Assembly (NCBI RefSeq): GCF_000007225.1
Contig: NC_003364.1
Coordinates: forward strand, 1,230,001-1,262,000
Reading direction: 5' to 3'
Source of the DNA: Pyrobaculum aerophilum str. IM2
GTDB lineage: Archaea > Thermoproteota > Thermoprotei > Thermoproteales > Thermoproteaceae
DNA: 32,000 nt
A program made the position numbers and the translations under genes. The notes beneath the pieces are model-generated. The model worked only from the letters and a program-made list of their open reading frames with translations, had not been told where the DNA came from and did no database searches. Of this stretch, positions 10-31,465 are shown in pieces; within the stretch, counting starts at the first letter, position 1; each line of letters opens with the position of its first letter.

Positions 10-1095
10 ATGAGGCGTTACGCGGGAGTACTGGCATACATCGCCAGCGTTTTAGTGGTCTGGGCTACTGGCCGTGATGTGAATAGCTATATGCTCACCA
101 CCGCAGTGGACATTTCGATATACGTGCTCATAACGCTTTCGCTAAACTTAGAGGCGGGCATCGCCGGGATACCCAACTTCGGGAGAGTTTTAACAGTGGC
201 ATTCGGCGCATATATCGCGGGGGGCGTGCTGGGCAGAATAGCCCTCTGGGCGCTGGGGCTTAATTACGATTACGTCGCCGATAACCCAACCGCGGTATCT
301 GCGCTGTCTAAAACTCTCACGCCCCCAATGGCAGCCCTGCTGTTATTAGCTGGGTTGTTTCTAGCGGGCATTGTAGGCGCGGCTATTGGCGTCGCGTCCT
401 CATTCCCCGCGAGGAGGCTGACGGCGGATTATCTGGCGATTACCCTACTGGCCTTTGGCGACGTGGCATATTACATAGGTCTTAACTACGAGCCCCTCGT
501 AGGCGGAACGCTAGGCGTTTCAGCGCCTCCTATTTACGAGGGCATTTTCGGAGGCGGCGTCATGAGGGCCGTGGGCGCCGCCTTGGTCTCCGCATCTGTG
601 GCGACGGCCACATACGCCTTGTTTACAAGGCTGGACAAGTCCCCATTTGGGAGAATTTTAAGAGTCCACAGGGAAGATCCCGAGTTAGTGTCCATGTTGG
701 GGAGAGACCCGGCGGCACTACGGGGGTGGGCCATGGCAATTGGAGGGGCCGCGTCTGCAGTCGCAGGGCTTTTATATGCATTATACGTCGGCGCGGTGCA
801 CCCCAGGGGCTTTGAGAGAATTAACTTCACCTTCTATCCGTGGCTTATAATGGTAATGGGCGGCATGGGGAGCAACCGCGGCGTTTTAGAAGGCGTATTT
901 ATATTTATTGTGATCTACCGCCTCCTCGATATATACAAGTATGAAGTCGGCAACGTTGTTGGTTTTGACCCTGTTTGGCTAGGCTATATTCTCTTCGGCG
1001 CGTTAGCCATGTTAGTAATTGTGACAATGCCCCGGGGGGTAGTCCCAGAGGAAGCAAAACCGCTTATTGAGATAAAGAGGCGCGGAGAGGAATGA
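10..1095 (+). CDS. ABC transporter permease, branched-chain amino acid type (LivM/LivH-like)
   Basis: 361-aa polytopic membrane ORF rich in G/A/L/I/V. Its length and hydrophobic pattern resemble LivM-type permeases. Assignment is by recollection of the family only. Confidence 0.55.
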   Translation: MRRYAGVLAYIASVLVVWATGRDVNSYMLTTAVDISIYVLITLSLNLEAGIAGIPNFGRVLTVAFGAYIAGGVLGRIALWALGLNYDYVADNPTAVSALSKTLTPPMAALLLLAGLFLAGIVGAAIGVASSFPARRLTADYLAITLLAFGDVAYYIGLNYEPLVGGTLGVSAPPIYEGIFGGGVMRAVGAALVSASVATATYALFTRLDKSPFGRILRVHREDPELVSMLGRDPAALRGWAMAIGGAASAVAGLLYALYVGAVHPRGFERINFTFYPWLIMVMGGMGSNRGVLEGVFIFIVIYRLLDIYKYEVGNVVGFDPVWLGYILFGALAMLVIVTMPRGVVPEEAKPLIEIKRRGEE

Positions 1096-9625: not shown

Positions 9626-10054
9626 ATGGCCGCGCGTATTAGAACGGCGGAGGAGGAGCGGAGGAGGCTTGAGCTTAAGAGCCAAGTCATGGCCGCCCTT
9701 AAGGACTGGTATCGCAGATGTTTTAAGTGGCCAATCCTGTCGGGGGAGGAGGGCAAGGTAGTGTGAAGGCTTGAGCTTTACTACGGAATGTGCTAAATGG
9801 CGAAAATAACAATCGCTGAGTACGGGGAGAAGTACGCCGAACCGCTAATCAGCGAATACGCCCTTAGGAGGGCCTTTTGGTGGGAGGGGGAGTGGAAGGG
9901 GAAGCCCATGTCGTGTTTCGTGACGGAGAAAAAGGCGATATGCAAGATAGGCGATAAGATGGCCGCGTTTTATGTATTTGACGCGCCCGACAGCGTCTAC
10001 CTAAAGCCAGAGATCAAGCTAATAGACGACTGGATAAAGCCTGTAGAGAGCTAG
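9626..10054 (+). pseudogene. Copy of the WWEGEW family (C-domain unit) interrupted by two in-frame stops
   Basis: A single frame reads MAARIRTAEEERRRLELKSQVMAALKDWYRRCFKWPILSGEEGKVV*RLELYYGMC*MAKITIAEYGEKYAEPLISEYALRRAFWWEGEWKGKPMSCFVTEKK... It is collinear with ORF 21033-21410. TGA at 9764-9766 and TAA at 9794-9796. Confidence 0.75.
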
Positions 10055-18611: not shown

Positions 18612-19062
18612 ATTTTCTGAGCCGTGACGCCGTGTCTCTAATAGAGAATTTGCTTACTCCGAGAATTTTTGCTATGACCTGTTTGTGAATATATATTCCA
18701 AGCCGCTCTGCTGCTAAATACGCTACCGCAGCCGCGATTACCCTAGGCGATTTACCTTGATATATTCTCTTGTCAAGACGCTGGAAAATTTGAAGCGCCA
18801 CCACCGTAACTTCAGGCACGCCTAAGGCCTCAGCGACTTTGCCAGTATACATTTTTACCATCTCGCTGTATTTCTTCTTAATACTCTTTTTGTTCTCTTG
18901 TTCAAGAGCCAGCATTATTAATTTATGCCTTACTGGTACTGGAAGCACTTGCCTAGGCCTTGGGGGCACGACCTCTGGGCCTAACACAGTCCCGCAGTCT
19001 CGGCATACATACTCGCCATCTGCTAATGTAATATTCATTGACTGACAATATGGACATTTCAT
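18583..19062 (-). CDS. Truncated TFB/TFIIB-like protein (Zn ribbon plus a single cyclin-like repeat)
   Basis: MKCPYCQS...YVCRDCGTVL Zn ribbon. One cyclin/HTH-like repeat follows (KSPRVIAAAVAYLAAERLGIYIHKQVIAKILGVSKFSIRD). At 159 aa there is no second repeat. The stop overlaps the ATPase start by 29 nt. Confidence 0.7.
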   Translation of the reverse strand: MKCPYCQSMNITLADGEYVCRDCGTVLGPEVVPPRPRQVLPVPVRHKLIMLALEQENKKSIKKKYSEMVKMYTGKVAEALGVPEVTVVALQIFQRLDKRIYQGKSPRVIAAAVAYLAAERLGIYIHKQVIAKILGVSKFSIRDTASRLRKYVPNIKETT

Positions 19063-19081
19063 GAGCCTGGGAAACTTCGAT

Positions 19082-19094
19082 TTTTAAAAATAAT
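19082..19094 (-). promoter_or_regulatory. TATA-like box for the TFB-like/ATPase operon
   Basis: An A/T box (plus strand TTTTAAAAATAAT) centred about 26 nt upstream of the minus-strand ATG at 19062. Confidence 0.4.
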
Positions 19095-19160
19095 AACTTA
19101 TATTTTTTTCTATAAAGAGAGAGTTCTCTAAAACTTTTAAAGCACTAATGCCTCCTCAAA

Positions 19161-19170
19161 ATTTTTAAAG
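19161..19170 (+). promoter_or_regulatory. TATA-like box for the Rpo8-like gene
   Basis: ATTTTTAAAG centred about 24 nt upstream of the ATG at 19190. Confidence 0.4.
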
Positions 19171-19189
19171 AGCCTCGATTTGAGCCCAC

Positions 19190-19504
19190 ATGGAGTTTTC
19201 CCTTGCCGTAGTGGATGTCACTAACGATATGCCTAACGTTATAAAGCTCAAGGGCGACGTAGAGGCGACAATAGAGTTGCCGCTAGAAAAGCTAGGAGTA
19301 GTATTTTCTGTCGGCGACCGCTTAAAATTAGTTCTACAAAAGGAGAAAGACCAAGACTTAAATAAGTACAAAGTATACGCATGGGGCATTGTCTATTACG
19401 TCGGTAATGGCATGACTAGAATCTCTATTGGGGGTTTACAACTTGACATAATGAAGGAGTTGCCGTTAAAAGCCGGGGAAAAGATTTACGTGGGGATTTT
19501 ATAG
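19190..19504 (+). CDS. rpo8: Probable RNA polymerase subunit Rpo8 (RpoG, Rpb8-like)
   Basis: The C-terminal pattern YKVYAWGIVYYVG...RISIGGLQLDIM...GEKIYVGIL resembles the Rpb8 signature Y-x-M-x-G-K-V-Y...S-F-G-G-L-L-M...Y-L-L. The size fits the crenarchaeal homologs. Motif-level call only. Confidence 0.5.
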   Translation: MEFSLAVVDVTNDMPNVIKLKGDVEATIELPLEKLGVVFSVGDRLKLVLQKEKDQDLNKYKVYAWGIVYYVGNGMTRISIGGLQLDIMKELPLKAGEKIYVGIL

Positions 19505-19507
19505 TGA

Positions 19508-19520
19508 TAAATTTTTAATG
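19508..19520 (+). promoter_or_regulatory. TATA-like box for the Sm-like gene
   Basis: TAAATTTTTAATG centred about 26 nt upstream of the ATG at 19540. Confidence 0.4.
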
Positions 19521-19539
19521 TCCTACGGTCGTTACGCGT

Positions 19540-19974
19540 ATGGCGTCTACACTGGCCGAGGCCAGCAAGCGGTTTGTGGCCGAGCTGAATAACCTCCTCG
19601 GAAGAGAAGTCCAAGTGGTGTTGTCCAACGGCGAGGTATATAAGGGCGTATTACACGCGGTAGACAACCAATTGAACATTGTGCTGGCAAACGCAAGTAA
19701 CAAGGCCGGGGAGAAGTTTAACAGAGTATTCATTATGTATAGGTATATTGTCCATATAGACAGTACTGAGAGGCGAATAGACATGAGGGAATTCGCCAAG
19801 CAAGCCGAAAAGATATTCCCTGGTATGGTGAAATACATAGAGGAGACAAACGTAGTGTTAATCGGCGACAAAGTAAGGGTGAGTGAAATAGGCGTCGAAG
19901 GGGTGGGCCCCGTCGCGGAGAGGGCGAAGAGACTTTTCGAAGAGTTCCTGAAAAGATACTCCCTGGAACAGTAA
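19540..19974 (+). CDS. Sm-like archaeal protein with a C-terminal extension (SmAP3-type)
   Basis: Sm1/Sm2 pattern (LLGREVQVVLSNGEVYKGVLHAVDNQLNIVLANA ... RVFIMYRYIVHI) plus an extra domain of about 70 aa, as described for Pyrobaculum SmAP3. Confidence 0.8.
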   Translation: MASTLAEASKRFVAELNNLLGREVQVVLSNGEVYKGVLHAVDNQLNIVLANASNKAGEKFNRVFIMYRYIVHIDSTERRIDMREFAKQAEKIFPGMVKYIEETNVVLIGDKVRVSEIGVEGVGPVAERAKRLFEEFLKRYSLEQ

Positions 19975-19989
19975 AAATACATTGTACTG

Positions 19990-20214
19990 CGGTAGCTTGT
20001 CGCTTTTTCTCCCCGCGCCTTTACGCCGCTAATAACCCGCCTCAACGTCGTAAGGCAGTACGTAACGTATATGTGTCCCCTCAGCTCCTGCCTCAGCCGC
20101 GTTAACGCCGTTATAAGCCTCCTGTATAAGACAGCATTAGGAGGCTCCAAACCGCCTCTGTAACTCAAGGGCCTCCGATAGGGCGATTTTTGCGCACCTC
20201 GTCTTAACTGTCAT
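19990..20214 (-). pseudogene. Degenerate third unit (N-domain remnant) of the tandem array
   Basis: It starts with the same ATGACAGTTAAG junction and reads MTVKTRCAKIALSEALELQRRFGAS*. After frame changes it reads ...AYNGVNAAEAG..IRYVLPYD.., collinear at DNA level with the N-terminus of ORF 20204-21043. Confidence 0.6.
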
Positions 20215-21043
20215 CGCCCCTATGGGCCACCTTAATCCAGTCGTCCACAAGCTTTATCTCCGGCCTTAGGTACACGCCGTGGGGGGTGTCAAATACGTAA
20301 AACGCGGCCATTTTTTCGCCCACTTTACACACAGCCCTTTTCTCCGTCACGAAACACGACATGGACTTGCCACGCCATTCCCCCTCCCACCAAAAGGCCC
20401 CTCTTAGGGCCCTTTCCATTGGCGCTATTCCGAATTCCCTCTTCGCGGCGCTTCTCATTTGACACAGCGCGTGGTATTCCTCAAGCCTCTTGGCCACTTT
20501 CAGCGGGTGTGCTGGCGTCTCGCCGAAACAGCGGAAATACCACTCCGTTAAGGCGTTCAGCACTTCCTCTCTAATTCTCTGCCTCCGTAATTGCTCCTCC
20601 CACTCCCTCTGCTCTTTAACCCGCCTCAACACCTCGCTGATACAGCCCCTAAGGCTTTCCCTATAGCAAAGACTCCCCTCTATCCTCACACCGTCTACAA
20701 CGGCGTAATAATACGTTTTGTATCGCGTTTTTTCTATCATAATTTCTATCTTGTGATTTTCAGCCAGCTCGTATAGGGCCTCCGCCAGCGTAGGCGATAT
20801 GCCATAGCCCTCCCACCTCTTCTTTGGCTTGTATTCAGCCATATAGCGTTTAGCGATTGTGTCGTAGGGCAATACATAACGAAAGCGTATACCCTTCCTC
20901 CCGCCTTCTGCAATAACGGCGTCAACGCCGTAGAAGGCCCCTTGCGTGAAACACCCCCAAGAGACGCCGAATTTGCGCGGTAAGGAAAAGGCCTCTGGTA
21001 GCGCCACTTTTACACACGCCGCCTTAACCGCCTTAACTGTCAT
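20204..21043 (-). CDS. Uncharacterised two-domain protein, the full unit of the WWEGEW repeat family
   Basis: 279 aa. The N-domain is MTVKAVKAACVKVALPEAF...IRFRYVLPYD... The C-domain is ...LNALTEWYFRCFGE...AFWWEGEWRGKSMSCFVTEKRAVCKVGEKMAAFYVFDTPHGVYLRPEIKLVDDWIKVAHRGDDS. The C-domain has paralogs at 21033-21410, 9626-10054 and 31052-31400. Confidence 0.75.
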   Translation of the reverse strand: MTVKAVKAACVKVALPEAFSLPRKFGVSWGCFTQGAFYGVDAVIAEGGRKGIRFRYVLPYDTIAKRYMAEYKPKKRWEGYGISPTLAEALYELAENHKIEIMIEKTRYKTYYYAVVDGVRIEGSLCYRESLRGCISEVLRRVKEQREWEEQLRRQRIREEVLNALTEWYFRCFGETPAHPLKVAKRLEEYHALCQMRSAAKREFGIAPMERALRGAFWWEGEWRGKSMSCFVTEKRAVCKVGEKMAAFYVFDTPHGVYLRPEIKLVDDWIKVAHRGDDS

Positions 21044-21410
21044 CGCCCCTATACGCCACTTTAATCCAGTCGTCTATTAACTTGATTTCAGGCCTTAGGT
21101 ACACGCCGTGGGGCGTGTCAAATACATAAAACGTTGCCATCTTATCGCCTACTTTACACACAGCCTTTTTCTCCGTCACGAAACACGACATGGGCTTTCC
21201 CCTCCATTCCCCTTCCCACCAAAAGGCCTTCCTCAGGGCGTATTCGCTGATTAGCGGTTCGGCGTATTTCTCCCCGTACTCAGCAATTGCGGTCTTTGCC
21301 ATTTCGCACATGCCGTAATACAGTTCAATCCGCCTTACTAATTTGCCCTCCTCGCCCGGCATGATGGGCCACTTAAAACATCTGCGGTACCAGTCCTTTA
21401 ACGCCGCCAT
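21033..21410 (-). CDS. Uncharacterised protein, C-domain-only member of the WWEGEW repeat family
   Basis: 125 aa, closely similar to the C-terminal half of ORF 20204-21043. Its stop overlaps the next gene's start (GGCGATGACAGTTAAG). A further 34 homologous codons upstream (to 21512) lack any start codon. Confidence 0.7.
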   Translation of the reverse strand: MAALKDWYRRCFKWPIMPGEEGKLVRRIELYYGMCEMAKTAIAEYGEKYAEPLISEYALRKAFWWEGEWRGKPMSCFVTEKKAVCKVGDKMATFYVFDTPHGVYLRPEIKLIDDWIKVAYRGDDS

Positions 21411-21567
21411 TACCTGACTCTTAAGCTCAAGTCTCCTCTGCTCCTCCTCCTTCTTCCTCCACTCCAGTACGCGGGACTCCTCGTTCTTTATGTAATCTAT
21501 GGCGCGTATGCGTTAAAATATTGCCTTAAATCTCGCTTAAGTTGTTTTTAAAAAGGCGCGGAAATAC

Positions 21568-22596
21568 GTGGAAGAGGCGCCGGGATGCATCGCGGCGGTA
21601 GAGGAGGCAGTCAAGCCGGCAGTTGTAGCCGCCGCCGGCCTGGCCGGATACGCGGCGCTACACGACGGGCTGTACTCAACGGCTGTTGTGTCAGCGACGG
21701 CCGCGGCGGTAGTACTGGCGAGGGAGGGGGCCTTTGAGAGGGCAGTGGAGTACGTAAGAAGGGCCGCCGAGGCGGCGTATGAAGCCGCGAGGGAGGTATT
21801 CGAAAAGGCGAGAATAACGTTGCAGAGGCTTTACGAGCTGTTTGTAGAGGCGGTGGCGAGAGTCCTTGACTACGTAAGAGCGCATTGGTTCATAATGGCC
21901 GCCGCGGCGGCCGGGCTGATGGCGTGGGTAGTGGCGCAACAACTGGACTACACGCTTTGGCAGAACCACATAGCGCTTAACGCCGGGGCGATAGCGGGAC
22001 TGGCAAAGGCGGCTGGCGTTGGCGATAAGTGGAAGGAAGTAGGGAATGCGGTATTGACAAAAACAGCAAGCGAGAAAGAGATTGTAGAGCGCGCCGCCCA
22101 GCTAGGCCTTGACAAAGGCGTTGTGGAGAAGGCGGTAAGCGCCTTCTCAACGCTGAGACACGCGATGGATGAGAAGCAAATAGAAAATGCAGTGTTAGAG
22201 TTAAGGCGCTTGACGAGTTACGTGCAGGCGATGAAAGCCGCCAACTACAAAAAGGCCCTTGAGGAGGCCTCTAAGGCGTGGTATGAGCAAAGAGATCCCG
22301 CGGCGCTTTGGGCTCTGGCAGTACTTGGCGCTAGGGAGACCGGCAAGAGCGTAAAGGTCTTTGAAGATGACGATGACAGAATAGCATATCTAATAGCCTC
22401 CTTCACGCTATTAAACCACTTGAGGGAGTTTGTAGAGCTGAAGAACAAGTCCTACAAGGCGCTTGAAAGGCTGGAAGGAGCTGTGAAAAGCGGCAGATTT
22501 GCCCTTAGCGACGTATGGGGTGACCTCAACGTGTTGGTAGAAGCCGCGGAAAGGGCGAAGGGAGGTTACCAACGAGCTGGACAGAATTGCATATAG
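21568..22596 (+). CDS. Uncharacterised Ala-rich membrane-anchored protein, probably the N-terminal part of a frameshifted large gene (paREP2-like, from memory)
   Basis: GTG start with a GTTTTTAAAAAGG box about 18 nt upstream. Hydrophobic A/V/G-rich segments are followed by helical repeats. The 3' end overlaps the open upstream extension of the next ORF's frame. Confidence 0.6.
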   Translation: MEEAPGCIAAVEEAVKPAVVAAAGLAGYAALHDGLYSTAVVSATAAAVVLAREGAFERAVEYVRRAAEAAYEAAREVFEKARITLQRLYELFVEAVARVLDYVRAHWFIMAAAAAGLMAWVVAQQLDYTLWQNHIALNAGAIAGLAKAAGVGDKWKEVGNAVLTKTASEKEIVERAAQLGLDKGVVEKAVSAFSTLRHAMDEKQIENAVLELRRLTSYVQAMKAANYKKALEEASKAWYEQRDPAALWALAVLGARETGKSVKVFEDDDDRIAYLIASFTLLNHLREFVELKNKSYKALERLEGAVKSGRFALSDVWGDLNVLVEAAERAKGGYQRAGQNCI

Positions 22597-22639
22597 GCTG
22601 GAGGGAGCTGGTTACAGCGGAATTGCCGAAAGGCTGAGA

Positions 22640-25615
22640 GTGGCTACGGAGAACGTAATAAGGCTTGCGGAGGCTACGCGAGACGATCTTCCCAAGATAG
22701 ACGCCACTAGAGGAGAGAGGACAGTGACCGCTTTGCTATCGCTTGTAACTGGCGGCCTATTCGGCGTCACTGTGGAGAGGGCATTGGCGGAAAGAGGCAA
22801 ATGGACAGTAGGCGCTCTTGGCATTGCGTCAGCAGTTAGGAGTACACCCTCAAACTTCTACAACGCGTTTAGCTCAGTCAGCGGCGATGAGAAGCCTTCA
22901 GAGGCCAAAAAGCTGACCTTCCGCATTGCCACTTTGCTGGCAGATCCCGCAATGAGAGAAATACTGGCCGGCAGACAGGGCGTGGAAGTACGCGTAGAGC
23001 AAAAAACAGAAAACGGCAAAAAGTACATTTATATCACGTTTGTAGACAAGGACGGCCACGAGCTCCTCAAAGCCCCATGGGATGCCGACAGGGGGTTAAT
23101 GCCGCTTTGGGCTGAGGGAGAGGTAGTAGAGCTGTTTAAAGAAGTTGGCAAATTGGCTGTGGCTGTCTCCTCCGGCTCTAAACCGCTGGAAGAGCTGAAC
23201 GAGGAGGAATGGAAAAAAGTGGTAGAAACAGTGAGGAGGGTGAAAAAGGCAATTGAATGGACCGTCAAGGCCGTTGCAATCGGCGCACTGCCCACAGACG
23301 CTGTCCTATTACCTGGGTCTGAGTACGTCCGCGGTACCTCCTCCTACCTCTCGCAGACATTTACCTATTGGGCGCTAGCTAAGGACAGAATTGGGCTCGT
23401 AAGAGTATACCCCTCCGAAGAGGGGCTAAAGCCGATGTGGCGCGTTGAGGGCAAGTACACTGAGGCGGTGCGCGAGGTGCTGAGTGTAAGCCGCGCCGTG
23501 TTTGAAAATCTATTGACACCTAACAAACAGTCGGAAGGCGGCGTTGATCTGAAGGTGGCTCTAACTGATGTTAAAATGAATGATGAATTAAAGAAGGCCT
23601 TGGAGACGGCGGCCGGCGAGTTCTGGGAGCGCGTTAATGAGCTGTTAGCACTGTGGAAACAGCTAGAAGAGGAGGCAAAGGAGAAAAAGGACGAAGAGAG
23701 GAAAAAGGTGGTAATGGAGGTAGACAAGCTGGGCAAATACCTCCGCGTCCTCCTCCCGCTGGCATATGCCGTAGAGGCGCGCAAGATGGGTGAACTGTCT
23801 AGAGAGGAGGCGGCCCTTGCGGTGATTTTCGCTGTGTTGTACGATGGGACTGTGTTTAGAGACGAAATTCTGCTTTTCATCGGCGGCCCTGAACACGTGG
23901 AAAGCCCGATTATGACCCGCGACCACTTCACCGCTTTCTGGCTGTGGGCTCTGAAGGAGCTTGGCCTTAAGCCAAGCTCAGTGTATAGGGGCAGAGGCGC
24001 GCACCATATTGCCTTCAAAGGCGCCGAGCTGAACGGCTTACTGGAGGCTGTAACGCCGGCGCTACCCGCGTTGCACGAGCTTAGGGATGCCCTGACAGAA
24101 TTCGCCGACGCGTTTAAAGTCGTTACCCGCGAGGCGGTTAAAAGGAAATTCGGCATTGACTGGGGTTACGACGTGAGAAACGAAATGTTTTTCAAAAAGC
24201 TAGAGGAAGTTGTTACAATGGCAGAGGACTACGTCTACAGAAACGTCACAGTGGAGAGGGATCAGCTGGACACAAGCGGACAGTTGCCAAAGACTGTCAT
24301 CCGCTTTAAGCTTGGCGGGGAGGAGGTGGCGTACATAACCGTATACTGGACTGGCAGTAAGCTACTAGCCCAATTCGACGGCTCTCGAGAAAAAGCCGAA
24401 CAGTTAGCCTCTATCATTACGGCTTTGGGCGGCAAGGCGGAGGTCAAACCAAAGAATGCCAAATGGACTGTTCACCTCCACACCGACGGCATAATTGCCA
24501 TTCGCCATGACAGCTGGTTAAATGCTGTGAAGGGCTTTGTTGACGAACTTTACAGTAAGGGGCTGATCAGCGAGGATAGATACGAACAGTTGGTGAGGGA
24601 CATAGCTACAGGCCCCAACACCGTCAACTATGCCGGGGTGGAGTTCTCGGTTTATCACAAGACGGAAGGTAAATACGATTTTTTAGAAATAAGGTATCAC
24701 CCAGGCAACGAGGCCTCTAAAAATGCCGTTGTGAACGCCCTAAAGGCAAGAGGGCTGAAAGAGGGTGTACACTTCACTGTGAAAGAGTACGGCGACTACG
24801 AAATTCACGTGGCTGTTGAATCGTATACAAAAGCTTTGGAAGCCTTGGCACGTAGCTGGCTGAGAAAGGGAGAGTACTACGCCATTGATGACAGAAAGCG
24901 TGTAATCAGCGTCAAGGCGGAGCACAAAGACGCAGTTGTAAATACCCTAAAAACCGCTGGGCTGGAGGAGGATAGACACTTTACGGTGAAGTGGGACGGA
25001 TACTACGTAATTCGTATTACATATGAAGGCCTCCGCGAAATCCAGCGTATGGCGCTAAACGGCGACGTGGAGGCTGAGCGCTTTATAAGGGAGCTTGAGG
25101 ATGTGCTGAGGCGCCGCCACGGCCAAAACGCAGTGAAAAGGCTGATTGAAGTGTTGACGCCGGCGAGGGAGGAGGGGACGATAGATTTACCGCTAGAAGT
25201 GCGCGACGAAAGGGGCAACGTGGTAGCCCGCGTTGTGGACTTGAGGTATGAATTCGTAATGGGCGATCAACCCGTTGGCCAGTGCGCCGGGGAGGACTGC
25301 CGCCTGCGCATAATAGTGGAGTACGAGACAGAGGGGGAAAGGAGACAGCTAAAGATAGTATGTTACTGGGTTAAGAAACAGAAAGAGAAAGGCAACGCAA
25401 CAGTCACATACTACTATGAAGCGGCATGGTCGAGAGTCAAAAACGATGTGGAAGCCGCCGTGTTGAAGGCGCTGACGGGAAAGGCGAAGAGGGGCAGAGT
25501 GCAACTCTTTTCCAGCGACTTAGACACCCTGTACCGCTTTAAGGCCCTAAAGGATGCCGTAGATAAGTGGAGAGGGGGAAAGCCACAGAGTGTTGTTCAA
25601 AGACGAGGTATATAA
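22640..25615 (+). CDS. Large uncharacterised modular protein (paREP2-like, from memory)
   Basis: 991-aa ORF with a coiled-coil-like K/E stretch and internal repeated modules, plus a paralogous fragment at 9214-9573. Its frame is open for 33 further codons upstream (from 22541) without a start codon. Confidence 0.75.
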   Translation: MATENVIRLAEATRDDLPKIDATRGERTVTALLSLVTGGLFGVTVERALAERGKWTVGALGIASAVRSTPSNFYNAFSSVSGDEKPSEAKKLTFRIATLLADPAMREILAGRQGVEVRVEQKTENGKKYIYITFVDKDGHELLKAPWDADRGLMPLWAEGEVVELFKEVGKLAVAVSSGSKPLEELNEEEWKKVVETVRRVKKAIEWTVKAVAIGALPTDAVLLPGSEYVRGTSSYLSQTFTYWALAKDRIGLVRVYPSEEGLKPMWRVEGKYTEAVREVLSVSRAVFENLLTPNKQSEGGVDLKVALTDVKMNDELKKALETAAGEFWERVNELLALWKQLEEEAKEKKDEERKKVVMEVDKLGKYLRVLLPLAYAVEARKMGELSREEAALAVIFAVLYDGTVFRDEILLFIGGPEHVESPIMTRDHFTAFWLWALKELGLKPSSVYRGRGAHHIAFKGAELNGLLEAVTPALPALHELRDALTEFADAFKVVTREAVKRKFGIDWGYDVRNEMFFKKLEEVVTMAEDYVYRNVTVERDQLDTSGQLPKTVIRFKLGGEEVAYITVYWTGSKLLAQFDGSREKAEQLASIITALGGKAEVKPKNAKWTVHLHTDGIIAIRHDSWLNAVKGFVDELYSKGLISEDRYEQLVRDIATGPNTVNYAGVEFSVYHKTEGKYDFLEIRYHPGNEASKNAVVNALKARGLKEGVHFTVKEYGDYEIHVAVESYTKALEALARSWLRKGEYYAIDDRKRVISVKAEHKDAVVNTLKTAGLEEDRHFTVKWDGYYVIRITYEGLREIQRMALNGDVEAERFIRELEDVLRRRHGQNAVKRLIEVLTPAREEGTIDLPLEVRDERGNVVARVVDLRYEFVMGDQPVGQCAGEDCRLRIIVEYETEGERRQLKIVCYWVKKQKEKGNATVTYYYEAAWSRVKNDVEAAVLKALTGKAKRGRVQLFSSDLDTLYRFKALKDAVDKWRGGKPQSVVQRRGI
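24719..25057 (+). repeat. Internal tandem duplication of a module of about 45 aa, spaced 69 aa apart, inside the 991-aa ORF
   Basis: KNAVVNALKARGLKEGVHFTVKEYGDYEIHVAVESYTKALEALA (from 24719) versus KDAVVNTLKTAGLEEDRHFTVKWDGYYVIRITYEGLREIQRMAL (from 24926). Confidence 0.6.
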
Positions 25616-25647
25616 ATGTGTAACATTATACGCAAGGGCTCCAGTGA

Positions 25648-28392
25648 CTAGTCCCAAAACGCCCTAGTAGCGGCGAATTGTTTTTCTGCGTCTATAATCG
25701 CCGCCCACAAGTCTTCGCCCTGAATTACTTTATTGAGAATCCGCACTGCCGTCTTGGGGCCGACGCCGTGTGCGAGCTGTACTAATACGCCAAGTCTGCC
25801 GTGTTCTAACACGAGAGATGCGCTGAGTTGCAAATACTCCAATATTTTCCTCTCCTCTGGATCAAGTTTTTGTTTTATTTTAAACTTTTTAATTACTTGC
25901 CTGGCCTTTTCTATATTAAAACCTTTAACTACTGCTAGAGCCTTTACGCCGCAGTTTTGGCACGAAATGTCTTCAGGCAACATAGAGGCCTTTGATATAT
26001 ATGACCACCCGCAGTTGAGACAGAGGAGAGTGGCGTATTTGTTCATAATTCTCTTTCTGGCCAAATCGGCTAAAGACTCCTTTGAGAGGCCCTTAAAGGA
26101 GAAGTCCAGTCGCAAAGCCTCTTCAAGAATGGGCTTTTCCAGCGCAGTGGGTTTTGCAAGCCTTCGAAATATAAGCGGCATTTCGCCACTTGCCACTTTT
26201 TCGAGTAGCGTGAAGAGGGCCTTTACGTCAAGTTTCTCAACGAAAATCTCGTTGAGAGTTTCTAACCCCGGGAGGTCATCAGAGTAGAGATCTGGCAATT
26301 TAGAGGGCACCTCCTCTGCGTCTTTTGACACGAGACCTACCCTCCTAGCCACTTGTAAGAATCTGTATCTATACATCTTAGAGCTTTTAACGGCGTTTTT
26401 AAGAGTGGTGTATACAAAGGGCTGGGGCTTTTTAAAAACTTCCTCAAGGGCTTGTACCGGGACGAAGTCTCTAAAAATTAAGAGGACTCTGTACGCATCT
26501 GATCTATACCCCACGGGCCCTACGTAGCCAGAAAGGGCGTGGGATAAGTAGGCCCCAAGCGCCTCGTTGCCCTTATGGCCAAGACAGCTGTGCACCACGG
26601 CGTATTTATTCCCAACAATGTGTATATGTAATTTATCTGGCCGCGGTATTAAATCCGGCGTAATCCCCTCCATATCAACTGGCCACTCCTCCGCGCCGGC
26701 TTTTAACAACGCCTCTGCTCGCCTTTTACAAACCTCTTGAGCTATTTCGTAGGGGACTGGTATCTGCTCCCCTAGCCACGCCGGCAGGGCGCCCGTCAGC
26801 TCAAAATCGGGATAGAGGTATACCACATCGCCTTCCCGCCTAATAAAAGTCCACACGCATCCCGACAGAACTATTTTCGTCCCCGGCTCTATGGAGTATA
26901 CAAATTCTCTGTCGAGCTCTCCCACTGCCTTCCCTGTGGTGTCGTCCACAGCTCTATAGCTCTTCTCGTCTGGAATTGTAGAGACGTTCTCAAAATAATA
27001 GCGAATACTCCCCTTCCTTGGCCTCAGCCCCTTGAGAAGCCCGTGTCTTTCGGCGAAGTCAATTACCAGGCGGAGATCGTCTTCTGTCAAATTCCGATAG
27101 GGGTGCGCCCTCTTCACCACGCGCGCTACATAGTGAATATCCGCATCCCTCCCGTCAAGCCGTCCCTCTAGGGCAATGCCGACAACTTGGTGCAAGAGGA
27201 CGTCTAAGGCGTTTTCGTGATATTCCACGTCTGTTTCAAGAACCCCCTTCACTGCCCGCTCGGCTATAACTTCAGACTCTAAATAGTCCTCTAAATCGGC
27301 GGCTATTACAATCCCTCTCGAAGTAAGGCCCAGCTTGTGCCCGCTCCTCCCGACTCTTTGAACAAGCTTTGCCACTTGTCTGGGACTGCCGTATTGCACC
27401 ACTAAGTCAATTTCGCCTATATCAATGCCCAGCTCAAGACTTGACGTAGCCACTACGGCCTTTAATTCCCCCCTCTTCAGCCGCTCTTCTACTGCGATTC
27501 TGTGATCCCTTGAAAGAGAAGAGTGGTGCACCTCCACAACGTCTCCCAAAATCTGTTTTAACCTCGAGGCGAGGAACTCCGCGCCGTCTCTAGTATTTGT
27601 AAACACCAAGACAGAGCCCTTGGAAGATTTTACGTACTCACCAACTCTTTTAATCCGCGCCACAGCCTCAGGAGTTGCGTCAAATTTCTCTGCGTCGATA
27701 TAATCCTCGTCTGAAGGCGTTGGCAACACCACTTCTATATCTAACTTCTTCTCCCCCGACACGTCCACTACCTCGACCCTCCTCCCCACGCCTCCCAAAA
27801 ACTCCGCCACAAGCCCCGGCGCCCCCACTGTGGCCGAGAGTCCAATACGTTGAAACTCCCCCGCTAGCTCAACCAGCCTCTCCAAGCCAACTGTCAGTTG
27901 TACCCCGCGCTTGCTGTTTATAAGCTCATGCACTTCATCGACTATTACAAAACGCACCTTTCTCAAACTCGGCCTAAGCCCTCTGTGAAGTAACAATATT
28001 TGTAAAGTCTCGGGCGTAGTTATTAACACATCAGGCGGCTTGCGCGCCAGCGATCTCCTCTCGCCCTCTGGAGTATCGCCGTGTCTCACCGCAATGCTAA
28101 CCCCTACTCTTTCAGCCAAGGCGAATAACCTGCGCAACAAGTCCCTGTTTAAGCTCCTAAGAGGCGTAATGTACAGACACTTAACGCCCCCCTCTCCTCG
28201 GCTTTCTAAAATCCGCGACAGAACTGGAAAAAACGCGGCCTCAGTCTTGCCAAAGCCCGTCGGCGCTATTAATAACACGTGCAAACCAGCCAAAATTTTG
28301 GGAATAGCCCCTATCTGCGCGGGAGTGGGCTCTGCATATCCCAGCTCTTTAATAGCCTTCTGCAACTCAGGGTGCAGAAGGTTGAAAACCAC
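25648..28392 (-). CDS. lhr: Lhr-type large ATP-dependent helicase (DEAD/DEAH superfamily 2)
   Basis: Motif I APTGFGKTEAA, motif II DEVH, motif III SAT, motif VI QRVGRSGH. A long C-terminal extension carries CLNCGW...CQNCG. GTG start. Confidence 0.9.
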   Translation of the reverse strand: MVFNLLHPELQKAIKELGYAEPTPAQIGAIPKILAGLHVLLIAPTGFGKTEAAFFPVLSRILESRGEGGVKCLYITPLRSLNRDLLRRLFALAERVGVSIAVRHGDTPEGERRSLARKPPDVLITTPETLQILLLHRGLRPSLRKVRFVIVDEVHELINSKRGVQLTVGLERLVELAGEFQRIGLSATVGAPGLVAEFLGGVGRRVEVVDVSGEKKLDIEVVLPTPSDEDYIDAEKFDATPEAVARIKRVGEYVKSSKGSVLVFTNTRDGAEFLASRLKQILGDVVEVHHSSLSRDHRIAVEERLKRGELKAVVATSSLELGIDIGEIDLVVQYGSPRQVAKLVQRVGRSGHKLGLTSRGIVIAADLEDYLESEVIAERAVKGVLETDVEYHENALDVLLHQVVGIALEGRLDGRDADIHYVARVVKRAHPYRNLTEDDLRLVIDFAERHGLLKGLRPRKGSIRYYFENVSTIPDEKSYRAVDDTTGKAVGELDREFVYSIEPGTKIVLSGCVWTFIRREGDVVYLYPDFELTGALPAWLGEQIPVPYEIAQEVCKRRAEALLKAGAEEWPVDMEGITPDLIPRPDKLHIHIVGNKYAVVHSCLGHKGNEALGAYLSHALSGYVGPVGYRSDAYRVLLIFRDFVPVQALEEVFKKPQPFVYTTLKNAVKSSKMYRYRFLQVARRVGLVSKDAEEVPSKLPDLYSDDLPGLETLNEIFVEKLDVKALFTLLEKVASGEMPLIFRRLAKPTALEKPILEEALRLDFSFKGLSKESLADLARKRIMNKYATLLCLNCGWSYISKASMLPEDISCQNCGVKALAVVKGFNIEKARQVIKKFKIKQKLDPEERKILEYLQLSASLVLEHGRLGVLVQLAHGVGPKTAVRILNKVIQGEDLWAAIIDAEKQFAATRAFWD

Positions 28393-31051: not shown

Positions 31052-31465
31052 TCAAACGCTTTAAACACTTGGCGCCGCCAATGCTTCGGAGAGTCAGCGC
31101 CGACGTTTAGGGAGAGGGAGGTGGCTAGAAGGCTAGAGGACTACTACGTCCTTTGAGAAATGACAAAGGCTGCGAAAAGGGAGTTTGGGCGCCTCCTCAC
31201 TGACGGGCTTGGCATTGTGGAGGGCCTTGGAGTGGCCTTTTGGTGGGAGGGGAGGCAAGCCAATGTCGTGTTTCGTGACGTAGAGAAAGGCCTTCTATAA
31301 TGTGGGGGAAAAGATGGCTATGTTTTACGTGCACGGTACGCCCCATGGGGTGTACCTTAGATCCTAAGTCAAGGCACATAAGGGAGATGGGAGTAGTTAA
31401 AGCGGCATGTTAAAGGGCTCTCCCGCCAATTTTTCAAACCCTCGCGTAGGTTTAAAGCACTTTAT
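31052..31465 (+). pseudogene. Heavily degraded copy of the WWEGEW family (C-domain plus the start of the next unit)
   Basis: Across frames it reads SNALNTWRRQCFGESAPTFREREVARRLEDYYVL*EMTKAAKREFG ... AFWWEG ... MSCFVT* ... GEKMAMFYVHGTPHGVYLRS*VKAHKGDGSS*, followed by VVKAAC. It is collinear with ORF 20204-21043 and its junction. Confidence 0.6.

Follow-up and report, generated by a model that had tools for sequence, protein, structure and literature searches.

Three head-to-tail PaRep2a copies lie on the minus strand of the window, the whole 32,000-nt stretch of the Pyrobaculum aerophilum IM2 genome under study: a C-domain-only gene; a two-domain gene; and an N-domain remnant (Table 1). As an array, they form the small-gene arm of a paREP2 cassette, divergent from a 342-aa protein gene and PaRep2b. 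Sequence comparisons show that the three units did not arise by duplication at the site. As a whole, this account is the best explanation of the locus, with a probability of about 0.8. Its structural and evolutionary part, a cassette arm of this origin, is held with high confidence; its functional part is tentative, at odds clearly short of even.

Table 1. Features of the PaRep2a array and its cassette, in positions of the window.
Feature	Position	Strand	Description
paREP2 island	19954-25647		5.7-kb insertion relative to four congeners
Unit 3	19984-20214	-	decayed N-domain pseudogene; start ATG 20214; stops at 20137-20139 and 20029-20031
Junction 2	20203-20218	-	same 16-mer GGCGATGACAGTTAAG; unit 2 to remnant (unit 3)
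Unit 2	20204-21043	-	complete 279-aa PaRep2a protein; ORF list and PF07903
IM2-specific segment	~20295-23734		two other P. aerophilum assemblies lack it at this site
Junction 1	21032-21047	-	GGCGATGACAGTTAAG; unit 1 to unit 2
Unit 1	21033-21410	-	125-aa C-domain-only PaRep2a gene, start MAALKDWY; ORF list and PF07903 (E 2.8e-63)
Divergent spacer	21411-21567		157 bp between unit 1 and 342-aa gene; direct sequence reading
342-aa protein gene	21568-22596	+	long cassette form; no family match
PaRep2b gene	22640-25615	+	991 aa, large divergent partner; PF07775 (E 2e-271)

PaRep2a (PF07903) is matched end to end by the C-domains of both unit 1 and unit 2, with E ~1e-62 and scores of 211.7 bits (unit 1) and 208.3 bits (unit 2) over model positions 2-122, where the gathering score is 25 bits. 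An earlier note on this DNA had guessed at one of the paREP families, and that guess is borne out for the array as PaRep2a, its 991-aa partner ORF being PaRep2b (PF07775). The PF07903 model represents the 122-residue C-domain only, whereas an N-domain of ~130 residues and a head-to-tail operon are present here in addition. The P. aerophilum (IM2) genome annotation is where the paREP2a repeat genes were named, so units 1 and 2 count among the founding members of the PaRep2a family. The array belongs to this already named repeat family and is not a discovery in itself. For >20 years PaRep2a has gone without a functional or structural description, and the literature searched makes no mention of the N-domain, head-to-tail operons, mosaic recombination, selection data or strain polymorphism. 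What is added for the family here is: two-domain proteins; overlapping head-to-tail operons; strong purifying selection on intact copies; and active recombination.

The IM2 genome (a single contig of 2,222,430 bp) contains 46 PaRep2a matches, many of them bearing stops or frameshifts. Of the other 26 genomes in the taxonomic family, 25 have no match, among them 14 of the 15 congeners. PaRep2b is present in 15 of the 27 genomes of the taxonomic family and PaRep2a in 2 of 27; PaRep2a is therefore not needed by PaRep2b cassettes in general. Homologues of PaRep2a number only 22 in a set of 5.8 billion proteins and 60 in one of 1.84 billion representatives. Those with a named source are all from Pyrobaculum bar one MAG labelled Thermofilum, and the remainder are unnamed metagenome proteins.

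The three-unit anatomy, the repeated junction and the 829-nt period described in the earlier note are confirmed by self-comparison of the window, by the ORF list and by the junction sequence at both sites. A 211-nt segment at 20200-20410 recurs in direct orientation at 21029-21239, at a spacing of 829 nt and with 87% identity, and successive units are joined by the same minus-strand 16-mer, GGCGATGACAGTTAAG, which occurs twice in the window and eight times in the genome. The same or a near-identical junction is found at 18 genomic places. Co-oriented ORFs overlap by 11 nt at both junctions (21033-21043 and 20204-20214), and the reading frame of each unit is +1 relative to that of the preceding unit. 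The stop/start overlap claimed for the junction thus holds at the level of the reading frames. It does not hold for the codons themselves, as the TAA of unit 1 (21033-21035) lies 8 nt past the ATG of unit 2 (21043-21041) and does not coincide with it.

Across the genome, ~20 of ~29 distinct PaRep2a C-domain 3′ ends continue into N-domain codons, which is far beyond chance. In their native arrangement, PaRep2a genes form head-to-tail operons in which diverged paralogues follow one another and their stop and start codons overlap. Paralogue operons with such overlaps are an ordinary archaeal gene organisation. The suggestion that an array of this kind is unusual for a cellular gene was not sustained; the array is an arm of a multi-copy, strain-variable cassette that is missing here in four congeners. 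In a metagenomic array (L032), the ORFs overlap by 17 nt and 4 nt and the overlap sequences differ from GGCGATGACAGTTAAG. Overlaps of these sizes resemble those of translationally coupled operons, in which termination-reinitiation operates in archaea and bacteria; unlike in those operons, the genes here are paralogues of each other, and it is the overlap that suggests coupling. Sequence inspection gave no convincing Shine-Dalgarno motif at proper spacing before the unit 2 ATG, and no Rfam family matches across 19000-26000. Translation of unit 2 may proceed by termination-reinitiation across the 11-nt overlap, and transcription of the operon would start from the A/T-rich divergent spacer. This spacer contains the A/T palindrome TTTTTAAAAA at 21545-21554, a candidate bidirectional TATA element.

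The frame of unit 1 remains open for 34 further codons, to 21512; none of them is ATG, GTG or TTG, and they align with the linker helix of full-length relatives. Unit 1 is a 5′-truncated derivative of a full-length gene, with an internal Met codon as its start. It is strongly conserved as a 125-aa protein, and an identical protein is encoded at a locus at 710 kb in the genome. Unit 2 comprises an N-domain (~aa 9-128) that is without a Pfam model, a long helix (131-173), a helical hairpin, and the PF07903 C-domain (163-278). Unit 3 is ~64% identical in nucleotides to the start of unit 2, and its N-domain similarity is traceable to LPQY at ~19984. There, the island edge cuts it at N-domain residue ~88, beside the SmAP3 stop, leaving a dead remnant.

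The order of C-only, two-domain and N-remnant units recurs at 709-710 kb and 922-923 kb in the IM2 genome. Arrays are also found in other assemblies, with units of 295, 278 and 41 aa (L052), 139 and 280 aa plus a remnant (L053), and 302, 300 and 130 aa (L032). Because other loci and other organisms share this layout, the head-to-tail order is older than the locus itself.

The earlier note had proposed comparing the array between strains. In two other P. aerophilum strains (L055 and L056), the site holds only a short cassette, in which the array is represented by no more than the orthologous unit 3 remnant, junction 2 and a C-domain fragment. The DNA at junction 2 is therefore resident: the stretch is identical in L055, and the remnant, the junction and the last ~30 codons of unit 2 are common to the other strains. 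At this one site, strains of the same species differ by 3.4 kb. The IM2-specific segment holds unit 1, the spacer and the 342-aa gene, together with most of unit 2 and PaRep2b aa 1-365. Within this segment, 20915-22209 is an exact 1,295-nt copy of genome positions 710261-711555, a partner locus 540 kb away, and near-identity continues to ~23500. The exact tract takes in unit 1, the first 43 codons of unit 2 and the divergent spacer. The presence of only a short cassette in two strains, together with this identity to the 710-kb locus, argues that the array was built by ectopic recombination.

The IM2-specific segment meets resident DNA within the C-domain WWEGEW/FYVFDTPHG core and within PaRep2b. 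Crossovers may have occurred at these two places, and the segment would have entered via homologous recombination or gene conversion, other copies of the cassette being the partners. The reverse polarity, in which the other strains lost the segment and the long form is the older, could in principle also give the observed difference.

Unit 2 itself is a mosaic. Codons 1-33 are 100% identical to the 709-kb and 922-kb arrays; codons 35-215 are 87-98% identical to L031; and codons 219-279 are 88-90% identical to type-A copies. No donor of codons 43-215 is present in the IM2 genome, the nearest copies being 80-98% identical, and at least two recombination events are therefore assumed. Judged by these alignments, unit 2 is an intact 279-aa chimera, drawn from at least four lineages.

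Such a mosaic raises the possibility that recombination in the family has a purpose. The last 70 C-domain codons and the first 40 N-domain codons could act as recombination handles through which variable cores are exchanged, the partners being expressed arrays and many truncated silent copies, as for pilE/pilS or orphan toxin-module arrays. PaRep2a arrays and ~40 truncated junction-bearing copies could then reassort N-domain, linker and C-domain types into chimeras, of which unit 2 would be a fresh example. Consistent with this proposal, the unit 2 genes at 709 and 922 kb are identical over codons 1-130 with a dS of 1.6 over codons 216-279, three C-terminal types occur in varying combinations with the N types, and the junction-centred 440 nt are exactly what many truncated copies have kept. 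However, there is no signal of diversifying selection, with dN/dS <0.4 in every segment, and PaRep2a is without a signal peptide, membrane segment or toxin domain. Breakpoints also fall outside the junction-flanking segments, and frequent ectopic conversion is expected of any repeat with 46 copies, so that no purpose is needed. Purposeful shuffling is thus considered unlikely. If true, it would be an archaeal counterpart of silent-cassette gene conversion, to the benefit of a selfish cassette or as part of a conflict with another mobile element.

The coding capacity of the array bears on whether any of its proteins functions. Unit 1 compared with five truncated paralogues of the same type gives a dN/dS of 0.03-0.08 at a dS of 0.5-0.8, with 34-38 synonymous and 8-20 non-synonymous changes among these C-only paralogues. 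Full-length PaRep2a genes, including unit 2, give a dN/dS of 0.15-0.35. Purifying selection acts on both unit 1 and unit 2 (dN/dS 0.03-0.35). Structure prediction, also proposed in the earlier note, was carried out for unit 2 with AF2 and returned two beta-rich domains linked by a 43-residue helix (pLDDT 78.7 overall and >90 in the C half). Against these observations, the locus could be viewed as a scrapyard of dead repeat fragments in which no unit makes a functional protein. Unit 3 is indeed dead, unit 1 is without an N-domain, many of the 46 copies are disrupted and the family hardly extends beyond one species. Both unit 1 and unit 2 are nonetheless intact ORFs, the C half of the AF2 model is predicted with confidence, and the low dN/dS of both the C-only and the full-length genes makes this view improbable.

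Local tandem duplication of one 829-nt gene unit, followed by decay at both ends, was the implicit model of the earlier note and would account for the exact period and the identical 16-nt junctions. Under this model, however, units 1 and 2 would not be expected to share only 61% amino acid identity over 146 aligned residues, with the high nucleotide identity (87%) restricted to the last 211 nt. Nor does it fit the two strains with only a C fragment and remnant at the site, the exact identity of unit 1 and the first 43 codons of unit 2 to the 710-kb locus, or the recurrence of the layout at other loci and in other organisms. Local duplication is largely refuted already and is very improbable. 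The proposal that the array encodes a single polyprotein via programmed +1 frameshifting, which would fit the +1 frame of every unit and the conserved junction sequence, is scarcely credible: each unit has its own ATG, sequence inspection of the junction gives no recognisable slippery or hungry-codon context, and the junction is not conserved as a recoding signal because the overlaps in L032 differ and several copies have a mutated TAA or have lost the ATG.

Under the preferred reading, in which the array is a recombined arm of the paREP2 cassette, the role of the proteins can be proposed from their predicted architecture. The PaRep2a proteins may be non-enzymatic, oligomerising binding proteins, each built of a beta-rich domain plus a long coiled helix, and could serve the maintenance or regulation of a selfish cassette. 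The small PaRep2a protein is a candidate maintenance factor. The earlier statement that the family has no recognised function still stands, as the Pfam entry supplies no more than a family name and nothing significant came from PADLOC, PHROGs, PDB or Foldseek. Foldseek comparison of the unit 2 model with PDB and BFVD gave best E values of 0.026 and 0.053, scattered over PH/FERM-like and biotinyl-domain matches that are not trusted, and PDB sequence and profile searches yielded chance-level matches only.

An anti-phage defence or toxin-antitoxin system is not supported: PADLOC has no match for PaRep2a, the 342-aa protein or PaRep2b, and Pfam and NCBIfam find no toxin or antitoxin domain in the cassette proteins and nothing beyond family names. 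A viral or proviral origin is rejected, with no match in PHROGs, in IMG/VR or by tblastn of phage and archaeal-virus records, and none in BFVD at E <0.05. Common ancestry of the N- and C-domains was also rejected (hhalign probability 0.2%). For distant relatives of the N-domain, the C halves of one group reached E 0.001 at a probability of 21%, which is no more than suggestive.

The cassette occupies a defined position between SmAP3 and Lhr. In four congeners these genes are convergent and abutting, with overlapping stop codons, and the site is empty. This comparison shows that the cassette (~19954-25647) is an insertion between the two genes. Window positions 20827-25587 are 87-88% identical to two other cassettes. 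The 342-aa protein, with a single hydrophobic helix around aa 105, has counterparts at 973 and 711 kb that match it at 100% or 99.7% identity. The divergent pairing of PaRep2a with PaRep2b, present at most genomic loci, is found here. The island thus resembles the paREP2 composite cassette in its divergent small/large gene pair, its multiple copies and its strain- and species-specific insertions.

PaREP2b was described as a putative transposon in the P. oguniense genome paper (PMC3558965). In contrast to that label, Pfam and NCBIfam find no transposase or integrase domain in any cassette ORF, no terminal inverted repeats of the cassette were recognised, and no target-site duplication is detectable at the island ends, where 269 of 500 shuffles reach an equal direct-repeat score. 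In these searches the cassette does not show the marks of a transposon-like mobile element. The cassette is a tractable case of how a repeat is spread and maintained without a recognisable transposase in a hyperthermophilic archaeon. A faint, diverged 10-nt resemblance is seen at both island ends and is not counted as evidence. The island has a G+C content of 50-58%, against 41-52% in the flanks, a difference too indistinct to argue for foreign origin.

A further possible likeness involves the large gene of the cassette. The AF2 model of PaRep2b aa 468-991 (pLDDT 86) has LAGLIDADG enzymes, e.g. I-OnuI, I-SmaMI and I-Tsp061I, as most of its top 35 Foldseek matches; these are weak (E 2e-3 to 0.1, TM-score <=0.24, rmsd ~18 Å), and Pfam finds no LAGLIDADG match in PaRep2b. 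This likeness is a feature of PaRep2b and not of the PaRep2a array. The cassette also resembles free-standing LAGLIDADG homing-endonuclease genes in occupying an intergenic site between conserved genes.

Three successive pieces of one gene type occupy the minus strand at 19984-21512 (see table). The earlier note described them as head-to-tail units, an observation that is correct and non-random: two ORFs and a remnant with its own ATG are recovered. Unit 1 is C-domain-only, as had been stated, and its frame stays open for 34 further homologous codons, to 21512, without a start codon; this extension, reading RIRAIDYIKNEESRVLEWRKKEEEQRRLELKSQV, aligns to the linker helix of full-length relatives. 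Unit 3 is dead, and its traceable end comes within a few bases of the stop codon of SmAP3, the convergent Sm-like gene (19540-19974). Self-comparison returns the 829-nt periodicity as a long direct repeat, and the repeated junction sequence is present as one 16-mer, with two occurrences in the window and eight genome-wide. The described overlap of the TAA stop with the next ATG requires correction: the ATG precedes the TAA by 8 nt, which gives an 11-nt overlap of the ORFs and places each unit in the +1 frame relative to its predecessor.

Features of the PaRep2a array and its surroundings (window coordinates)
Feature	Position	Strand	Description
Unit 1	21033-21410	-	ORF, 125 aa
Unit 2	20204-21043	-	ORF, 279 aa
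Unit 2, codons 1-33 (exact tract to codon 43)		-	100% identical to 709- and 922-kb arrays
Unit 2, codons ~35-215		-	gene on L031 (another P. aerophilum assembly), 87-98%; 981-kb copy, 80-93%
Unit 2, codons ~219-250		-	type-A copies, 88-90%
Unit 2, codons ~250-279, with junction 2 and remnant		-	resident DNA, also in L055 and L056
Unit 3	ATG at 20214, traceable to LPQY at ~19984	-	in-frame stops 20137-20139, 20029-20031
Direct repeat, 211 nt	20200-20410, 21029-21239		87% identical, start-to-start spacing 829 nt
Junction 16-mer GGCGATGACAGTTAAG	20203-20218, 21032-21047	-	
Palindrome TTTTTAAAAA	21545-21554		in spacer
342-aa gene	21568-22596		in long cassette
PaRep2b	22640-25615	opposite to units	991-aa ORF, PF07775, E 2e-271
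Island	~19954-25647		5.7 kb, empty-site alignment
Direct repeat, 27 nt	19807-19833, 19950-19976		GAAAAGATATTCCCTGGTATGGTGAAA and GAAAAGATACTCCCTGGAACAGTAAAA, 81% identical
PaRep2b-Lhr spacer	25616-25650		32 nt between stops, ending AAGGGCTCCAGTGACTAG
Decayed PaRep2a C-domain	9686-10039		genome 1239686-1240045
Decayed PaRep2a C-domain	31055-31394		genome 1261055-1261394

The C-domains of units 1 and 2 are Pfam PaRep2a (PF07903; 212 and 208 bits, respectively, cut-off 25 bits), which bears out the guess of a paREP family, one of those named in the P. aerophilum IM2 genome. A reading as a novel, unusual array is not upheld: this is a known family, present in its type genome with the usual operon layout and within a known repeat cassette. 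The genome (a single 2,222,430-bp contig) holds 46 PaRep2a matches, and only one of 26 other genomes of the taxonomic family has any (three matches); PaRep2b is present in 15 of 27. Unit 2 has 22 homologues across 5.8 billion proteins, and a profile search of 1.84 billion representatives gave 60. All homologues found are labelled PaRep2a, hypothetical or not at all, and their source names are all Pyrobaculum apart from one MAG labelled Thermofilum, the remainder being metagenome proteins. Two further C-domain copies in the window are decayed by stops and frameshifts. The searchable literature offers only passing mentions of paREP2; the P. oguniense genome paper ties it to strain-specific regions and terms PaREP2b a putative transposon (PMC3558965). 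What is new here is descriptive: the two-domain architecture, the family-wide head-to-tail organization, purifying selection, the likely recombinational assembly of the array, and strain polymorphism at the SmAP3-Lhr site.

Head-to-tail order characterizes the family as a whole and is not peculiar to this locus. The succession of C-only unit, full unit and N remnant recurs at genome positions 709483-710759 and 922011-923248, a C fragment precedes a full unit at 981134-982201, and, of the roughly 29 distinct C-domain 3' ends genome-wide, about 20 continue directly into N-domain codons. Other assemblies carry comparable arrays: a Pyrobaculum MAG, L052 (295 aa, 278 aa and a 41-aa remnant); another P. 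aerophilum strain, L053 (139 and 280 aa and a remnant); and a hot-spring metagenome contig, L032 (302, 300 and 130 aa, overlapping by 17 and 4 nt). The ancestral form is therefore an operon containing two or three diverged paralogues, each ~300 aa long. Unit 1 is a derivative that has lost the N-domain: its sequence, start-less codons included, corresponds to the C half of a full-length gene located at 692965-693813. On L032, no PaRep2b was found within the 12.9 kb examined, and the PaRep2a neighbours (C5 methyltransferase, TrmB-type HTH protein, AAA ATPase, HerA/DUF87 ATPase and SWIM protein) are of kinds typical of integrated mobile elements. L032 (1-12909) and a second hot-spring contig, L034 (1-12918), both carry PaRep2a without PaRep2b in apparent integrated mobile elements, together with a SWIM zinc-finger protein of ~193 aa; L034 also has an operon of many small ORFs.

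The PaRep2a array forms one arm of an inserted cassette. Genome 710173-714957 and 974295-969643 show 88% and 87% identity, respectively, to window 20827-25587, and at most loci a PaRep2a C-domain gene diverges from a PaRep2b gene, with the 342-aa gene between them or absent. In four congeners the Sm-like and Lhr helicase genes are convergent with overlapping stop codons, and alignment to this empty site delimits the island. No target-site duplication was detected at the island (269 of 500 shuffles score at least as high as the best end-to-end match). The second copy of the 27-nt repeat lies exactly on the island's left edge and provides the Sm-like gene with its stop and final six codons, which differ from the C-terminus in the four congeners; the repeat may be an insertion scar or a chance match. 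To the right, AAGGGCTCCAGTGACTAG reads as an ancestral, congener-like Sm-like C-terminus, KGSSD*, so the original gene end seems to survive there.

The 342-aa protein matches no family and has a single predicted hydrophobic helix, near residue 105. Two other loci encode it with 100% or 99.7% identity; its gene in L052 and at 692 kb has a full-length PaRep2a unit in place of the first 40-50 codons. Short forms with fixed internal boundaries (genome 979236-981363, 997725-1000010, 1014158-1016295; also 204073-205874, 558893-560577, 1316262-1318063 and 1339645-1341442) have the PaRep2a C-domain cut at about residue 37-50 and fused head to head to PaRep2b, which begins at a position corresponding to window 23735 (in three copies, plus L055 and L056) or ~24036 (in five). 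Other strains commonly have intact PaRep2b proteins of 625-641 aa, so this short type may be functional.

How the array arose at this site can be approached through two other P. aerophilum assemblies, L055 and L056. Between the same Sm-like and Lhr genes, they carry a short cassette comprising N remnant, junction 2 (units 2-3) and a C-domain fragment of 86 aa, which lie head to head with a PaRep2b of 631 aa. Their match to the window shows one mismatch in the aligned part of 19157 to ~20295, fades up to 20410 and resumes at 23735-26019 (97%), so that window ~20295-23734 is absent there. This segment holds the first ~250 codons of unit 2, unit 1, the spacer, the 342-aa gene and PaRep2b residues 1-365. 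The 829-nt period corresponds to the unit length of the family and is not the mark of a local duplication. Window 20915-22209 is an exact copy of genome 710261-711555, with near-identity on to ~23500, and the 100 nt adjoining 20915 on the left contain 34 mismatches. Unit 2, whose closest relatives differ from segment to segment (see table), is accordingly a chimera. These sequences are most simply read as the outcome of ectopic exchange between cassette copies, by homologous recombination or gene conversion. Crossovers within PaRep2b and the conserved core of the C-domain would have joined imported units in frame to the resident C-domain end; at least two events, of either polarity, are needed.

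The intact units are real genes. Full-length PaRep2a genes show dN/dS of 0.15-0.35 in every segment compared. C-only genes of the unit 1 type (the copies at 1035, 914, 167, 973 and 692 kb) differ from unit 1 by 34-38 synonymous and 8-20 non-synonymous changes (dN/dS 0.03-0.08, dS 0.5-0.8).

The AF2 model of unit 2 (mean pLDDT 78.7; >90 from residue ~130) contains a beta-rich N-domain of seven strands and one helix, followed by a 43-residue helix (131-173), a helical hairpin and a six-stranded beta C-domain. Foldseek gave no significant match to it in PDB or BFVD, relatedness between the two domains is undetectable, and no membrane segment is predicted. Most invariant residues are aromatic, Gly or Cys; no catalytic set is evident among them, which favors a non-enzymatic binding or oligomerizing protein. 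On the grounds of the conserved divergent pairing, strong purifying selection in many copies and the family's origin in mobile-element contexts, we propose, with low confidence, that PaRep2a is an accessory factor in cassette maintenance or regulation. Transcription may begin in the palindrome-bearing spacer, and the 11-nt overlaps could couple translation. The PaRep2b domain (24041-25612; AF2 pLDDT 86) is modeled as repeated beta-hairpin and helix modules. Its top 35 Foldseek PDB matches are mostly LAGLIDADG meganucleases, all weak (best E 2e-3, TM-score <=0.24); this likeness is a lead, not membership.

The PaRep2a N-domain has no Pfam model and also occurs in ~10 remoter proteins, found in Pyrobaculum assemblies and hot-spring metagenomes, with C halves that show remote similarity at most. 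These relatives (P0032, P0037, P0044, P0048, P0057, P0059, P0063, P0065, P0075 and P0076; 260-340 aa) share the motifs ELPRRFG ... RY ... QxxADALxELA ... VNGV, their C halves being unmatched by HMMER. In a Pyrobaculum genome, one of them (L051) has an MmeI-type restriction-modification gene as its neighbor.
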